Shown here: positions 3,232 through 54,376 of the stretch, piece after piece
Numbering within the stretch: the stretch's first letter is position 1
Layout of the letters: the number at the start of each line of letters is the position of its first letter
From: a virus
Direction: 5' to 3' (one strand)
DNA: 64,000 bases
Virus record (IMG/VR): IMGVR_UViG_3300030441_000198
Program-made: the position numbers and the translations under genes
The notes under the pieces: generated by a model
Told to the model about the DNA's origin: nothing
The model's database searches: none
Seen by the model: only the letters and a program-made list of their open reading frames with translations

Positions 3232-3462
3232 ATGGATAATTTGAAACCGTGTCCGTTCTGCGGTGGGGAAGTTGCCATTGCAGAGGGTGGTTATCGCCAA
3301 ACACGATGGATGTATGTTACGAGAGGAAACAAAGAAAATAGGTGCAACTGCTATGTTATCATGGAAAGCAAAACTTACGACTTTGATTGCTCTGAAAAAG
3401 ACAAGGAAAGAATTAAAGCTGACCTTATCGAAGCATGGAACAAACGAATTTGTAAAAGTTAA
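3232..3462 (+). CDS. Lar-family restriction alleviation protein
   Basis: MDNLKPCPFCGG...CNCYV matches the Lar/restriction-alleviation family signature (N-terminal KPCPFCGG zinc motif, about 75 aa). Confidence 0.55.
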   Translation: MDNLKPCPFCGGEVAIAEGGYRQTRWMYVTRGNKENRCNCYVIMESKTYDFDCSEKDKERIKADLIEAWNKRICKS

Positions 3463-3481
3463 GATTTAAGGAGAGATAGAT

Positions 3482-3775
3482 ATGAGAATTGTAGATATTG
3501 AACCTTTAATGGATGAGCTTTCCGAAGAAATTGATGCCGCACAGATTCGAGGTGATACAGAACGCATTCAAATTTTTACGGACGAATTAGATGATATAAG
3601 CTCCATCCCGGTTATTGACGATTTGAACACGAAACTTAAAATTAGTAGATGGGTCAGAACAAAGAAAATGATCGTCTCTTATCGCTGTGAAAAATGTGAT
3701 TTTGAAATTGAAGGGACGCTTTTGTATAAATATTGTCCTGAATGCGGAGCAAAAATGCAGAATTCAAGAGACTGA
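3482..3775 (+). CDS. hypothetical protein with C-terminal zinc ribbon
   Basis: CEKCDF...CPECGAK CxxC..CxxC pair; RBS AAGGAGAG. Confidence 0.4.
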   Translation: MRIVDIEPLMDELSEEIDAAQIRGDTERIQIFTDELDDISSIPVIDDLNTKLKISRWVRTKKMIVSYRCEKCDFEIEGTLLYKYCPECGAKMQNSRD

Positions 3776-9694: not shown

Positions 9695-9773
9695 GGCCCT
9701 ATGGCGGAATTAGGCATACGCAACAAGCTCAAACCTTGTAAAATTCTCAGTTCAAATCTGAGTAGGGCTACCA
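9695..9773 (+). tRNA. tRNA, anticodon CAA (UUG-reading) with class-I length, oversized D-loop and encoded CCA; isotype uncertain
   Basis: Acceptor GGCCCTA/TAGGGCT, anticodon stem ACAAG/CTTGT with loop CTCAAAC, T-arm CTCAG-TTCAAAT-CTGAG, 3' ACCA. Confidence 0.5.
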
Positions 9774-9852
9774 ACCCATTTGCAGATGGGTAAGTGCTAG
9801 AATATTGGCAAATCGGAAAGACGGTTGACTGCTGGACAGACAGCTTTGATAT

Positions 9853-9935
9853 GCTACCGTGGTGGAATGGCAGACACCGGAGACTTAAAATCTCCTGTCG
9901 GCAACGACGTGCCCGTTCAAGTCGGGTCGGTAGCA
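9853..9935 (+). tRNA. tRNA-Leu (anticodon TAA), class II with long variable arm
   Basis: Acceptor GCTACCG/CGGTAGC, anticodon stem-loop GGAGA-CTTAAAA-TCTCC, variable arm GTCGGCAACGAC, T-arm GCCCG-TTCAAGT-CGGGT. Confidence 0.65.
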
Positions 9936-9942
9936 CTAATAT

Positions 9943-10018
9943 CCGGGTGTAGCTCAGTTGGAAGAGCGCGTGCTTTGGGAGCATGAGGCCGCAGGATCAT
10001 GACCTGTCACTCGGACCA
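9943..10018 (+). tRNA. tRNA-Pro (anticodon TGG), encoded CCA, atypical T-loop (ATCATGA)
   Basis: Acceptor CCGGGTG/CACTCGG, D-arm GCTC-AGTTGGAA-GAGC, anticodon stem CGTGC/GCATG with loop TTTGGGA. Confidence 0.6.
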
Positions 10019-10048
10019 GCCCGAAAGGGCATGTAGAATTTTTCATTC

Positions 10049-10100
10049 ACATTATTCCCAGCTCTCTGGAAACAGAGCAGTGTGGCATAGCAAGCTGGGT
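10049..10100 (+). ncRNA. conserved structured hairpin element preceding tRNA-Gln (copy 1)
   Basis: ATTATTCCCAGCTC ... AAGCTGGGT outer stem enclosing CTCTG-GAAA-CAGAG (GNRA loop); a second copy with compensatory changes lies at 10316-10368. Confidence 0.4.
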
Positions 10101-10105
10101 AGATT

Positions 10106-10178
10106 ACGAGGATTAGCCAAGCGGATAAGGCAGTGGAATTTGACTCCACGACCGCAGGTTCGATTCCTGCACCCTCGA
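10106..10178 (+). tRNA. tRNA-Gln (anticodon TTG)
   Basis: Anticodon arm GTGGA-ATTTGAC-TCCAC, T-arm GCAGG-TTCGATT-CCTGC, acceptor CGAGGAT/ACCCTCG with one mismatch. Confidence 0.55.
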
Positions 10179-10185
10179 TTTATAT

Positions 10186-10270
10186 GCGGGTATGGTGTAA
10201 CTGGCAGCCACGCGGATTTTAGGTGTCCGTGCCGAAAGGCGTGAGGGATCGTGCCCCTCTACCCGTACCA
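10186..10270 (+). tRNA. tRNA-Leu (anticodon TAG), class II, encoded CCA
   Basis: Acceptor GCGGGTA/TACCCGT, anticodon arm CGGAT-TTTAGGT-GTCCG, variable arm GCC-GAAA-GGC, T-arm GAGGG-ATCGTGC-CCCTC, 3' ACCA. Confidence 0.6.
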
Positions 10271-10315
10271 CGGTCATAGAATGGTTGCGTACCGTTTGTT
10301 GATCTCCTTTGGCCA

Positions 10316-10368
10316 CTATTATTCCCAGCTCGCTCGTAAGAGTGCAGTAGTGCTTTGTAAGCTGGGTG
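10316..10368 (+). ncRNA. conserved structured hairpin element preceding the tRNA-like gene (copy 2)
   Basis: Same outer stem CCCAGCT/AGCTGGG; inner hairpin CTC-GTAA-GAG covaries with copy 1. Confidence 0.4.
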
Positions 10369-10373
10369 ATTGT

Positions 10374-10445
10374 GCAGTTATTGTGTAGTTGGTAAGCACG
10401 CTTGCTGATGAAGTAAGAGGATGAGTTCAAAACTCATTGACTGCA
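10374..10445 (+). tRNA. tRNA-like sequence, non-canonical anticodon loop (TGATGAA, G at position 33); possible pseudo-tRNA
   Basis: Good acceptor (GCAGTTA/TGACTGC), D-arm (GTGT-AGTTGGTAA-GCAC) and T-arm (ATGAG-TTCAAAA-CTCAT); anticodon loop lacks U33 and variable loop is 3 nt. Confidence 0.3.
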
Positions 10446-10648
10446 AAATATGAAATCAGTTGTTCTAGCTCGTTCGTGGATTGGCCGTACATTGGCGACC
10501 GGAAAGACGTCATACCGGTAAAGGACGTCAAGCCAAACAAGAAGAGAAATAAGGTGTAAGCCGACTAGCTATCGGATAAATACTCTTCGATTCGCCAGAA
10601 AACTAGAATGTAAAACGAATGGTTGGCTGTTTCTGATTTCATTTATAT

Positions 10649-10724
10649 GCGACTGTAGTTCAATTGGCAGAGCGTCAGATTTCCAATCTGAATGTTGCGG
10701 GATCGTGCCCCGTCAGTCGCTCCA
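10649..10724 (+). tRNA. tRNA-Gly (anticodon TCC), encoded CCA
   Basis: Acceptor GCGACTG/CAGTCGC, D-arm GTTC-AATTGGCA-GAGC, anticodon arm TCAGA-TTTCCAA-TCTGA, T-arm GCGGG-ATCGTGC-CCCGT, 3' TCCA. Confidence 0.65.
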
Positions 10725-10855
10725 CACGCAGCCACTTACGCTGCACCGGTTGCTCAGAGCCGAAAGAAACCTATATGTTACGACATGGTTGCCAAGAGTG
10801 ATCATATTGGAACGCGACGTAGCTTGGATAGTGAGAATTAAATTCTGAGGTATAC

Positions 10856-10924
10856 TGCTGGATAGCTTAATGGTAAAAGCGCTCGGAAACGCCGAGAGAT
10901 AAGGTTCGATTCCTTCACTGGCAT
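10856..10924 (+). tRNA. tRNA-like element with canonical D- and T-arms but a 5-nt anticodon loop; probable degenerate or regulatory tRNA-like RNA
   Basis: TAGCTTAATGGTAAAAGC D-arm and AAGG-TTCGATT-CCTT T-arm; central CTCGG-AAACG-CCGAG hairpin instead of a 7-nt anticodon loop; imperfect acceptor. Confidence 0.25.
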
Positions 10925-10951
10925 CACGTCGATGAAAGTCGGCGTTTGCAT

Positions 10952-11028
10952 GGGATAGTAGCTCAGTTGGTCAGAGCTGGCGGCTCATAACCGCTTGGTC
11001 GCGAGTTCAAATCTTGCCTGTCCCACCA
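10952..11028 (+). tRNA. tRNA-Met (anticodon CAT; Met/fMet/Ile2 not distinguished), encoded CCA
   Basis: Acceptor GGGATAG/CTGTCCC, D-arm GCTC-AGTTGGTCA-GAGC, anticodon arm GGCGG-CTCATAA-CCGCT, T-arm GCGAG-TTCAAAT-CTTGC, 3' ACCA. Confidence 0.65.
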
Positions 11029-23099: not shown

Positions 23100-25291
23100 A
23101 TGAGTAGCAGTTTACATACGCACTCATACTTTTAGTTTACTCGATGGATTCTCTTCTCCTGAAGAAAATCTAAAAAGAGCATCAGAACTTGGTTTGAAAG
23201 CCATTGCCATTACGGAACATGGTGAGGTAACAAGCTGGCCGTACTATTCTGAACTAAAAGGCAAGTATCCGAATGTCAAACTTCTTTATGGTATCGAGGC
23301 ATACGAGTGCGAAGATAGGGAAGTCAAGGACAAGAATAGTAAATATTGGCATTTAATCATTATTGCCAAGAACGAAGCTGGTCGTCAGGCAGTCAATCGC
23401 TTATCTACACTCGGTCATCTTCATGGCTTTTACAGCCGTCCTCGTATCACAAAAGAGGATATCGCTAAGGAAGATACGAATAATTTGATTATCCTGTCTG
23501 CTTGTTTGGCGAGTAGGTTGTCCAAAACGGATGATTATGACACTTGTGTTAAGCTGGTTCAAGAGTATAAGAGCTTATTCCCTCACTATTATCTTGAGGT
23601 TCAGGCTCACGCAAACAGTGAACAAGCAAAATATAATCAGAAAATCATGCGGTTGGCAAACGATACTCATACAAAAGTAGTCGTCACAAACGATGTTCAT
23701 GCTGCTACCAAAGAGGATCTTTATTATCAAGATTACTTCCTTCGAATCGCACATGATACGGAAACTGCCGCAGAAATCTATGAGGGATGTTATTTTATGT
23801 CTCGTAAAGAGCAACATGAAGTCCTTGATAGTCAGATTGGATATGATGCAGCAGAATGGTGTATTAACAATACTGACGAGGTTGCTGATCTGTGTGATGA
23901 TGTGGATATGCCTTGGCATGAACCGGAACTTCCAAAAATTGAGATTCCGCCACAGTATTCTAATTCGGCAGCTTATCTGAAAGACCTTGTAAAAGAGGGA
24001 TGGAAGAAACGTAGCATTGATAAGTTTGATGTAGAAAAGCAGAAAATCTATCGAAAACGTGTTGATGATGAGCTGTTTGTCATTGAGAAGAAAGACTTCT
24101 GTGACTACTTTTTGATTCTGGTTGATTACATCAACTGGTGTAAGAAAAATGATGTCATTGTTGGCCCTGGTCGTGGTTCTGCTGCTGGTTCTCTTGTATG
24201 TTACCTGATTGGCATTACGCAGCTTGATTCCATCAAGTATGAACTTGACTTCGGACGATTCCTTACCATTGAGCGAAAAGACCTTCCTGACGTTGATGTT
24301 GATGTCAGTGACCGTGCCAAGGTTGTCGAGTATCTGACACAGAAGTATGGAGAAGATCGAGTAGTTCAGGTTATGAACATCGTGTACACTACTCCGGTCA
24401 CTTCGATTCAGGACGTTGGTAAAGTTCTCGGTTTTCCGTATGCCGAAATAAGAAAAATCAGCGAGAAGTTTGTTCAAAAGACATGGAAGGATTGCCTTGA
24501 AGCCAACCCGGAAGTGGTTGAAAATCCGAAGTATAAGGAACTACTTGACATCGCAAGTCATATCAATGGTCGCCCACGAGGATATGGTATTCATGCTGGC
24601 GGTGTTATTGTCTGCCGACATCCTTACTATGAATATATCGGTATCCGGCATGGTACTGACGGAGAGCATGTTATCTCTGTTGATAAAGTGATGGACGAGA
24701 AGATTGGACTCGTCAAGTTTGATATTCTTGGTGTTGCGTCGCTGGTTGCTATCGACGAGGCAAAACGTGAAGACAATATTCCAGACTGGGAGATTGATAT
24801 TAACAATCCAGAGTTTGAAAACGATAAGGCAACTTACGATTTGATTTGTTCCGGGCGGACAGACAATCTATTCCAGATTGAGTCTTCAGGCATGAAGGAT
24901 CTGGTTGCACAGCTTCAGCCGAGGTCGATTGAAGAACTATCCGCTTTGATTGCACTTTATCGTCCTGATGCAATGCCGTCCATTCCTACATACGTTGATT
25001 GCAAGTACCACCCTGAACACATTCACTACTTCCATCCTGACATGGAACCAATTTTTCGCAGCACATATGGTGTGAATATCTATCAGGAACAGAGTATGAA
25101 GCTCACGAAGGTCTTTGGCGGTCGAAACGATGCCGGAGCTGATAGAATGCGTAAATGCTTGGCAAAGAAAAAGCCTGAGAAAGTCAAGGAAGAAGTTACT
25201 ATCCTCCGAAAAGAAATACTGGATAACGGGTACGACTCTCGTACCGCAGAGTATATTTGTGACGAATTGTCCACCAAGGGTGGATATGGAT
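23100..25291 (+). CDS. dnaE: DNA polymerase III alpha subunit (DnaE/PolC-type), exon 1; apparent frameshift in T-run 23130-23133
   Basis: MSSSLHTHSYF then stop; the +1 frame continues SLLDGFSS...AIAITEHG (PHP-domain signature HxHSxxSLLDG). Ends at GGYG(F) just before the intron. Confidence 0.6.
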
Positions 25292-25518
25292 TGACGAAAG
25301 TTAAGTCCCTTATGTTGGCGACAACATAAGCAAACGCCGAATATGCGGGAAACTCCTTAGAGCCTTATGTACCAAAGTGTAATAATCATAAGGATTGGAC
25401 AATCCGCAGAGACAGCGCAGAAATGCGAAGCTCTCAACGACTACCAAGGCGTATTTCGTAAGAAATAATGGTATAGTCTACTCCCTATACAAATAATGCG
25501 AAAGCATGGGTATGAAGA
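25292..25518 (+). ncRNA. ORF-less group I self-splicing intron interrupting dnaE (about 227 nt; boundaries +/- 2 nt)
   Basis: The conserved GYGFNKSHS motif is split (GGYG | ... | NKSHS). P1 pairs exon GGAT with intron GTCC (25305-25308, u-G at the splice site); P10 pairs intron GTTAA (25300-25304) with exon-2 TTAAC (25519-25523); P7-like GACTA ... ATAGTC; several GNRA hairpins. Confidence 0.55.
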
Positions 25519-26543
25519 TTAACAAGTCACATTCTCAGGCGTATGCCGTTATCTGCCTTCAAACCGCATACTTAAAAACACACCATCCGCTTGCATTCTT
25601 TAAGGCTATGTTGAACCTAAATAAAGCAAAGGTTGGCAAGGTCAACAAGATTATGGTGGATGCACGCAGCTTTGATATTCAGATTCTTCCGCCGAGTATC
25701 AATCGTTCCGGCATGGATTTTACTGTGTCAAATGGTAAAATCCTATTTGGCTTGTCTGCTATCGGTGGTATTGGCAATACACTTGCTGAAACTATCATTG
25801 CAGAACGAGATAAAAATGGAAAATTCAAAGGGCTTGAAGATTTCACGAGTCGTGTTCGTGCAACGAAAGCGCAGATTATTGCATTGGTTAAATCCGGTGC
25901 GATTCCTACAAAGAACAAACGAATATTCTTGGAAAAGTACATTGCCAGCGGTTTGGAACAATCTGAGTTTAAGCCAGTCAGTACACTTCCTACCAAGGCA
26001 GTTTTGCTGAGTAAGTGGGATATTGATACAGAGCATTATAAGGTTTGTAAGAAGGTTGACAAAGAAACCGTCCTGCGGATCTATAATGAAAAGCGCCGTG
26101 TCGTACATGAAACCGAGAAGCTGAAAAAGAAAGAAGCGTATATGGCCGAGCAGACCACGAAATATCTACAAGATGAAGAGCTTTGGGAGTTCCAGACTTT
26201 GCAGACCTTTATCAGTGACCCGAATCCTTTCGAGAAGGCATTTGCTTATATCAAGGATTTCTCTGAAATCGAAGAAGGTGATTCTTGTGTACTGGTTGGT
26301 ATTATCGCAAAGATTCAGAAGAAGAAAACGAAGACTGGTATGCAGTTTGCATTTGTAAATCTGTATTCTGGCGATGGTATCATTGAGCTGACCGTATGGC
26401 CGAGAGTCTTGTCAGATTATCAGGATTTGATTGTAAAGGGAAGTCAGGTAGCTGTGCTTGGAAAGAAGGAAGATGAATCGCACGTTATTGCAAGCAACTT
26501 CAAACCTTATAAGCAGTGGTTGCATGATAGAGAGATAGCGTAA
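25519..26543 (+). CDS. dnaE: DNA polymerase III alpha subunit, exon 2
   Basis: Resumes (F)NKSHSQAYAVICLQTAYLKTHHP (conserved pol III alpha motif) in frame with exon 1 once the intron is removed. Confidence 0.6.
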
Positions 26544-26554
26544 GGAGGACGAGT

Positions 26555-26770
26555 ATGGCGCTCTATAAAGTTCCAGTAAAGTGGGAGCAATGTGGATATT
26601 TAATTGTTCATGCTGAAAATCAAATTGATGCTGCAAGTGTGGCGATGAATGATATTGACGCATATCCATTAGATGGCCAGACGGTTTCTGGTAGTCTCAG
26701 CCTTGCATTTCCACAGGGCTCCGAAACTGAATATATTGCAAAGATTGTACCCGGTTTTGAAGAACGATAA
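26555..26770 (+). CDS. hypothetical protein
   Basis: 71-aa ORF with GGAGGA RBS. Confidence 0.35.
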   Translation: MALYKVPVKWEQCGYLIVHAENQIDAASVAMNDIDAYPLDGQTVSGSLSLAFPQGSETEYIAKIVPGFEER

Positions 26771-26801
26771 CTAAAATCAGCACGAATAAGAGGGTTATAA
26801 A

Positions 26802-50417: not shown

Positions 50418-50598
50418 ACAGCAAGGGCAAAGCCCCAAGGCTGTGTGTGAAATCTTTTTCTTCTTGTTTTTTGGGATACTGGGCGCGGGTCCTCCTCCTC
50501 CGGCTGTTCTCCTTCACAGCTATGACCCATGCGCCGCACAGGCAGTGTCCCGCTTCGTGTGCAAAAGGGCTCGTCCGGTGTTTCGGACGAGCTTTTTT
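50418..50598 (+). ncRNA. candidate small RNA / cis-regulatory RNA (about 180 nt, GC-rich) bounded by promoter and intrinsic terminator
   Basis: Promoter at 50383-50411 and strong terminator at 50569-50598; the only ORFs inside look spurious. Function unknown. Confidence 0.3.
50569..50598 (+). terminator. rho-independent terminator
   Basis: GCTCGTCCG-GTGTTT-CGGACGAGC followed by TTTTTT. Confidence 0.7.
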
Positions 50599-54292: not shown

Positions 54293-54376
54293 GCCGCTGT
54301 GGTGAAATTGGCAGACACGAGGGACTTAAAATCCCTTTCTGGAGACAGAGTACGGGTTCGACCCCCGTCGGCGGCA
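54293..54376 (+). tRNA. tRNA-Leu (anticodon TAA), host-type (GC-rich), class II
   Basis: Acceptor GCCGCTG/CGGCGGC, anticodon arm AGGGA-CTTAAAA-TCCCT, variable arm, T-arm ACGGG-TTCGACC-CCCGT. Confidence 0.65.

Follow-up and report, generated by a model that had tools for sequence, protein, structure and literature searches.

Within the window, a 64,000-nt stretch of DNA from IMG/VR virus record IMGVR_UViG_3300030441_000198, we identified a DnaE-type DNA polymerase III alpha gene which is interrupted, inside a single phenylalanine codon, by a short insertion resembling a group I intron. The gene is accompanied by those for a RecJ-like nuclease, a phosphoesterase, a RecD2-like helicase and a DNA ligase, a set of neighbours indicative of a phage replication module; the closest polymerases of cultured phages are at most 37% identical to its product. 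Elsewhere in the window, a full-length match to the Rfam IMPDH RNA motif (RF02994; 118.8 bits with a gathering score of 95.4, E 1e-25) was found on the plus strand at 50468-50575, together with eight or nine clustered tRNA genes at 9695-11025 (plus strand) and one more tRNA gene, with a long variable arm, at 54293-54376. The interrupted gene comprises the following features:

23134 to 25291, plus strand: exon 1 of the DnaE-type DNA polymerase III alpha gene (Pfam PHP, DNA_pol3_alpha and DNA_pol3_finger; ORF list)
25194 to 25291, plus strand: divergent exon-1 patch, about 100 nt, 5' of the intron (identities in 100-nt bins; base-by-base comparison with locus L026)
25292 to 25518, plus strand: intron of 227 nt without an ORF, with helices P1-P10 and without P5abc or P7.1/P7.2 extensions (missing in intron-less alleles; RF00028; covariation)
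25519 to 26543, plus strand: exon 2 of the same polymerase gene (Pfam HHH_6, OB fold)

Exon 1 encodes the PHP, NTPase/palm and finger domains and ends on the U that opens the codon for Phe in GYGFNKSHS; the break lies within this invariant, catalytic motif of the fingers. Exon 2 supplies the last two bases of that codon, NKSHS, and then the HhH and OB-fold C-terminal part. An earlier, sequence-only reading had exon 1 running to KGGYG(F) before meeting an in-frame stop, and the ORF list agrees, in that the upstream ORF (23194..25329, plus strand) reads ...STKGGYG, continues through 12 codons of the insert and terminates at TAA 25327-25329. The downstream ORF (25506-26543, plus strand) reads (I)NKSHSQAYA from 25518/25521, and it was at (F)NKSHSQAYA that the earlier reading had the gene resume. 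Joining 25291 to 25519 produces GGA TTT AAC and, in line with the same reading, restores GYGFNKSHS within a single frame of 1040 codons; the ligated-exon junction is predicted to fall between ...GTCCACCAAGGGTGGATATGGAT and TTAACAAGTCACATTC. The resulting protein aligns without gaps across the junction to residues 667-948 of Thermus aquaticus Pol III alpha and is colinear with solved Pol III alpha structures. A phenylalanine precedes the NKSH or NASH motif in all 88 homologues, from 120 retrieved, in which an exon-encoded residue occupies that position. Among the relatives identified by protein searches many are split and others are uninterrupted, such as P0001 (95% identical), which reads STKGGYGFNKSHS.

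A separate irregularity lies at the start of the polymerase gene, where codons 1-11 (ATG 23100, MSSSLHTHSYF, carrying the PHP H-x-H motif) are out of frame with the remainder. Within 23100-23136 the later frame reads SLLDGFSS... from 23134, and to connect the two, translation would have to shift by +1 at UUU UAG (23130-23135). About 35 loci, some of them from the same contigs, retain both the extra T and the TAG, with synonymous variation nearby; other relatives without the extra T are in frame. A programmed +1 frameshift like that of prfB therefore seems a better reading of the site than a sequencing error.

Comparison with intron-less alleles defined the extent of the insertion. The intron-less locus L002, which is the DNA of P0001, aligns to the window up to 25292 and again from 25519 with a one-T overlap, so that the insert, previously put at about 227 nt, is exactly 227 nt and occupies 25292-25518 or, equivalently, 25293-25519. 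GYGFNKSHS is uninterrupted in about 45 related IMG/VR loci (70-140 kb phage contigs, 94-96% protein identity), where GGAT is followed directly by TTAAC, or GGTT by TCAAC, and the Phe codon is TTT or TTC. Six IMG/VR loci have this same 227-nt insert, and among close relatives these roughly 45 intron-less loci compare with at least 17 that contain an intron (not all of them distinct contigs).

The exon sequence bordering the insertion is itself informative. Across 25194-25291, exon 1 is 64% identical to intron-less relatives, compared with 90-100% in the rest of the gene, and the intron-containing locus L053 is 100% identical to the window across the 100-nt bin covering this patch. Beside the other end of the intron, exon 2 is 92-98% identical in most intron-less relatives and 81% identical in L006. 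The patch looks like a co-conversion tract, since such a drop in identity is the pattern expected of co-conversion when an intron is acquired from a diverged donor. The locus combines two attributes of a mobile (homing) intron, namely presence and absence at one site and an apparently co-converted flank. Given the presence and absence of the element among near-identical phages and the divergent exon patch adjoining it, the intron seems to have arrived by lateral transfer. No homing endonuclease was identified inside the intron, whose sole entry in the ORF list is a 45-aa TTG ORF on the minus strand, in keeping with its earlier description as ORF-less; nor was an endonuclease acting in trans identified within the window. 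For the intron to move, either an endonuclease provided in trans or simple recombination would be needed. A search with the family profile (nhmmer) identified no second copy of the intron in the window, while viral contigs gave 0 matches to a spliced-junction or intron-loss allele bearing the window's exon patch, and bacterial genomes gave 0 matches to the 3' part of the intron.

The same stretch of the polymerase gene has received other insertions. An in-frame 801-nt insertion was identified at L059:3200-4000 (also in L060-L063), where it separates GYGFNK from SHS, begins with C and ends in TCN, and lies three codons from the intron site; it corresponds to a 267-aa intein with a match to the Pfam intein splicing domain and a weak match to an HNH endonuclease. 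One polymerase motif is thus found empty, intron-occupied or intein-occupied in near-identical phages, with the three kinds of allele competing for it. A further DnaE homologue (L179:~760-1010) carries an intron of the same family a few codons upstream, between ...GG and YLFNKSHS, which indicates that the motif region has been invaded at more than one position. Downstream of the gene, a stretch of 242 nt between the polymerase and helicase genes (window 26545-26786) is missing from intron-less L002 and contains a 71-aa ORF (26555-26770) without a Pfam match.

The sequence-only reading had assigned the insertion to the group I introns and suggested a search with the Rfam Intron_gpI model. When 501 nt around the site were searched with laxer filters, RF00028 matched over its full length (model 1-253, window 25282-25500, E 6.7e-9), with a score of 40.2 bits that lies below the gathering score of 50; the expected match was thus recovered, at sub-threshold strength, and whole-window Rfam scans at the gathering score and at E <= 0.01 listed no intron. 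The fold z-score was -3.55 on the plus strand and -2.10 on the minus strand. For covariation analysis a P1-P10 structure was drawn by hand, in which the P9 of the minimum-free-energy fold of the single sequence (UAUAC/GUAUG) was dropped because its pairing is not kept in relatives, and P9 was redrawn as CCC/GGG together with P9a. The elements of this structure are:

25288 to 25308, plus strand: P1, exon GGAU 25288-25291 with guide GUCC 25305-25308 (homologue covariation; Rfam alignment)
25300 to 25304, plus strand: 5' strand of P10, GUUAA, adjoining the P1 guide, with exon-2 partner UUAAC 25519-25523 (100% paired in 11 sequences)
25309 to 25330, plus strand: P2, a 9-bp hairpin with a GCGA loop (3 of 9 pairs compensatory)
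25335 to 25338, plus strand: 5' strand of P3, CGCC, with partner GGCG 25448-25451 (3 of 4 pairs compensatory)
25344 to 25408, plus strand: P4 (25344-49/25403-08), P5 (25354-56/25397-99) and P5a (25363-69/25387-93; 4 of 7 pairs compensatory)
25409 to 25435, plus strand: P6 (25409-12/25432-35) and P6a (25416-19/25424-27, GAAA loop; compensatory)
25439 to 25443, plus strand: 5' strand of P7, GACUA, with partner UAGUC 25474-25478 (100% paired)
25452 to 25467, plus strand: P8, a 6-bp hairpin with a GUAA loop (3 of 6 pairs compensatory)
25481 to 25482, plus strand: 5' strand of P9.0, C25481 and U25482, with partners G25517 and A25516 (family covariation, 37 distinct members)
25483 to 25510, plus strand: P9, CCC 25483-85 with GGG 25508-10, enclosing P9a (P9 invariant)
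25496 to 25507, plus strand, within P9: P9a (25496-99/25504-07) with a GAAA loop (3 of 4 pairs compensatory)
25516 to 25517, plus strand: 3' strand of P9.0, A25516 and G25517, this G not being the terminal nucleotide (family-wide covariation)
25518 to 25518, plus strand: last intron nucleotide (omega), A instead of the canonical G (frame and intron-less alleles; P10 register; P9.0 register)

Covariation was scored over eleven introns from metagenomes inserted at the same codon (the window, L052, L053, L212, L210, L213, L214, L087, L217, L148 and L150), with shuffles and slid partners as controls. Paired cells amounted to 97.0% in these introns versus 90.3% in shuffles, and compensatory changes on both sides were observed in 23 of 64 pairs, compared with 0-2 in the slid controls. 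The covariation score of 0.249 exceeded that of the shuffles (0.119 +/- 0.010), none of 500 being as high. Compensatory changes were distributed over P1, P2, P3, P4, P5a, P6a, P7, P8, P9a and P10, while P5 (85% paired) and P6 (84% paired) are weak and without covariation. A conserved P3-P9 core with the P3/P7 pseudoknot is accordingly present, P5 and P6 being its weakly supported parts.

Several helices that had been proposed by eye were confirmed by these comparisons. The wobble U25291.G25305 of P1, which marks the 5' splice site, is U.G in 11 of 11 homologues, and the -2 pair of the same helix alternates between A-U (5 introns) and G-C (6 introns). In L148 and the A-ending L214, P10 is GUUGA/UCAAU instead of GUUAA/UUAAC, tracking exon 2. 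P7 changes from GACUA/UAGUC to GAACA/UGUUC in L150, and its putative guanosine-binding pair, G25439-C25478, is present and invariant in all eleven. To the GNRA-capped helices already noted, corresponding to P2 and P6a, we could add P8 and P9a, and these likewise carry compensatory substitutions. The in-frame stop TAA 25327-25329 lies within the 3' strand of P2. The 17-nt loop of P5a (25370-25386, UACCAAAGUGUAAUAAU) contains a core, ACCAAAGUGUAA, which is invariant in all eleven same-site introns and in the Lak-B1 megaphage relative, and this invariance suggests that the loop core makes a tertiary contact. Taken together, the full-length, sub-threshold Rfam match, the covariation of the core helices, the colinearity of the spliced product and the kinship with phage introns described below support the reading of the insertion as an ORF-less group I intron interrupting the DNA polymerase III alpha gene.

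A terminal guanosine is near-universal in group I introns and is treated as a fixed requirement for splicing. In the bacterial tRNA introns tested, changing the terminal G to C abolished exon ligation (PMC13011429), and an A at omega is unexpected in the light of that loss. The omega G of RF00028 is nevertheless lacking from the window intron, where A25518 is last and the nearest G, 25517, lies one base upstream. The sequence-only reading had noticed that the expected G was offset by 1-2 nt and attributed this to its own hand assignment; the offset is real, at one base, and the explanation does not hold, as three independent registers place A25518 at omega. Once the U.G wobble has set the 5' site, a junction between A25518 and U25519 alone restores both the frame and the phenylalanine. 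The P10 register agrees, with A25304 pairing U25519 directly beside the P1 guide. The third register derives from a pattern scan of viral contigs, which identified 59 loci with the same intron family. Across 37 distinct 3' ends, taken from the whole set of collected loci, the two bases that follow the P7 3' strand (GUCUA-NN) covary with the two that precede the terminal nucleotide, the outer P9.0 pair being CG in 15, UA in 10, AU in 3 and GC in 3; 95.7% of P9.0 cells are paired, versus 52-64% when the strands are slid by one. This covariation, combined with the pairs C25481-G25517 and U25482-A25516 in the window, leaves A25518 at the omega position.

Of 40 distinct 3' ends tabulated, 29 have G immediately after P9.0, and most of the non-G ends outside the window's group show a G one base later. 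Judged by these registers, the omega nucleotide of the window's lineage is A and not an error of hand assignment. Since a hallmark of group I introns is missing here, we regard the element as derived from that family and similar to it in its presumed mode of action, but not as a fully canonical example. Introns ending in A (AAGA) comprise the window, L052-57 and L210-215; G-ending sisters at the same site are L087, L217, L148, L150, L216 and L219 (phage Edson). One G-ending intron lies behind an ORF reading "...GIKVNKSHA", where the corresponding codon is GTC. We found no change specific to the A-ending introns in the G-binding pair, J6/7, J8/7 or J7/9, and the G-ending L150 shares UACU.

The A-ending group consists of seven distinct sequences, 87-100% identical and from independent samples, on contigs of 108-151 kb that match the size of intron-less relatives. 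Within this group alone, seven pairs show compensatory double changes, among them the -2 pair of P1 and a P10 pair that follows a change in exon 2. Such changes among the A-ending introns argue that the splice-site helices are still under selection, a constraint to be expected only of introns that splice, and we infer that the A-ending introns most likely splice. For the window itself, we consider it probable that the insertion is a compact, ORF-less group I intron, placed between the first and second bases of the GYGFNKSHS phenylalanine codon and spliced via A25518.

In the proposed mechanism the transcript would fold into P1-P10, and an exogenous guanosine held at the P7 pair G25439-C25478 would attack the phosphate just 3' of U25291, the base held in the P1 wobble with G25305. 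The 3' splice site would then be positioned by P10 (25300-04/25519-23) and P9.0 (25481-82/25516-17), two pairings that both covary, and the 3'-OH of U25291 would attack the phosphate 3' of A25518, joining ...GGA U to UU AAC... in the 1040-codon frame. A two-pair P9.0 (one G-C and one A-U) and a 5-bp P10 would carry most of the positioning of the 3' site, and the second step would probably be slower, as the cost of an omega A.

Three other readings of the 3' end were weighed against splicing at A25518. G25517 might serve as the terminal nucleotide, being the sole G near the 3' end in an intron whose G-binding pair is canonical; A25518 would then stay in the mRNA (GGA UAU UAA) and the polymerase would be truncated unless a translational frameshift rescued it, for which the separate conserved +1 frameshift site near the start of the gene could be seen as a precedent. 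We regard this as unlikely, as G25517 belongs to the P9.0 column that covaries with C25481, so that its use would leave P9.0 with one pair, put P10 off by one base and yield a product that stops just past the junction. The corresponding junction in L214 would be UAU CAA UAA, so that no common frameshift signal is conserved. Moving each splice site upstream by a single base, to follow A25290 and G25517 respectively, would reinstate a canonical terminal G and stay in frame, giving GYG-I-NKSHS with an Ile in all A-ending alleles. Such a shift is highly improbable, however, since the 5' cut would fall beside and not at the invariant U.G wobble, the P10 register would be lost, and the residue is Phe rather than Ile in every scorable homologue and, as TTT or TTC, in the intron-less alleles.

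Alternatively, the change of G to A may have killed the second step, leaving two polypeptides, of which exon 1 would end in GLTKVKSLMLATT and the other would start from ATG 25506 or 25512. Both ATGs are in frame, and gene callers predict proteins beginning MGMKINKSHS or MKINKSHS in many assemblies. Against this, helices of the ribozyme retain compensatory changes in the A-ending group, P1 and P10 with their exon partners among them, and the in-frame ATG is not conserved, L214 reading GGT ATT AAG ATC; moreover, the polymerase would be split inside its invariant catalytic finger motif, and an active first step would still cleave the mRNA. We therefore judge two separate polypeptides very unlikely. 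Two further candidate 3' sites, each following a G, were rejected for the junction, 25509/25510 because CMKI would be inserted into the motif and 25500/25501 because a stop results.

Splicing through A25518, as preferred here for the window, leads to a broader proposal, which we advance tentatively and rate just short of probable: that a diversified group of phage introns splices accurately with an omega A, an unaltered G-specific pair and G-ending sisters at the same site. If so, the choice of 3' splice site would be set mainly by P9.0 and P10 and less by the terminal guanosine. The omega A may even be kept, for slowing exon ligation or for suppressing side reactions that depend on the G, among them 3'-site hydrolysis, circularisation or reverse splicing. 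Matched A- and G-ending introns at one protein-coding site, where the frame reveals the junction, offer a clean test of the extent to which P9.0 and P10 can replace guanosine recognition in the second step. As a polymerase intron, the element is of practical value mainly for annotation; dozens of assemblies, and phages in GenBank too, have the two halves of the polymerase called as distinct genes.

An intron in a phage polymerase gene is of a routine, known kind, and the unusual feature here is the conserved terminal A with matched G-ending sisters. At the sequence level, the core of the window intron matches, with 80-87% identity across 60-76 nt, introns of Pseudomonas KIL, Acinetobacter, Bacillus AR9/PBS1 and SPbeta-like phages. 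These relatives share the P3-P5 core and differ in host gene, which is the portal gene in Pseudomonas KIL and the terminase gene in Bacillus AR9/PBS1; those with a readable 3' end have G after P9.0. A Lak megaphage sequence shows 69% identity over 91% of the intron, and the nearest full-length relatives among GenBank phages are unannotated sequences of Prevotella phages Lak-B1 to B9 (L001:4001-4222).

The Bacillus cereus jumbo phages Edson and vB_BceM_WH1 carry an intron of the same family at the same DnaE insertion point, between GYG-F and N.SH, in a polymerase only about 34% identical to that of the window; their introns end in G (GAAGG followed by UUAAC), are longer and have an extra P8 insertion. 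In Edson (L219:1180-1570) and vB_BceM_WH1 (L218), DnaE is annotated as two to three "DNA polymerase III subunit alpha" CDSs or as hypothetical proteins, and in Edson the sequence filling the gap is the G-ending, same-family group I intron at this codon. In vB_BceM_WH1 we found two sub-threshold Rfam intron matches, near 3334-3658 and near 1636-2249 of L218.

Group I introns also occur in the DNA polymerase genes of SPO1 and T7-like phages. A further example is the DNA polymerase gene of cyanophage Pf-WMP3 (PMC3428280). In common with the window these systems have a self-splicing intron in a conserved motif of a replicative polymerase gene, but their polymerases belong to family A and their introns usually carry an HNH homing endonuclease ORF, whereas the window intron is ORF-less and interrupts a family C (DnaE) polymerase. 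DnaE is host to inteins as well, among them the cyanobacterial split DnaE intein. Like the intein of L059-L063, it is a selfish element occupying this conserved motif of the polymerase, removed by protein splicing and not, as would apply to the window intron, by RNA splicing.

To our knowledge, a single natural precedent for an omega A exists, the Coxiella intron Cbu.L1917, which is said to belong to subgroup IB2 and reportedly ends in A while still self-splicing. The title of its report describes this Coxiella burnetii 23S rRNA intron as one that "lacks the canonical omegaG" (Raghavan et al. 2007, J Bacteriol 189:6572). Both are natural group I introns without the canonical omega G, but Cbu.L1917 resides in a bacterial rRNA gene, whereas the window intron interrupts a protein-coding phage gene, so that its junction is fixed by the reading frame. 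Unlike Cbu.L1917, the window intron belongs to a diversified A-ending group with G-ending sisters at the identical site.
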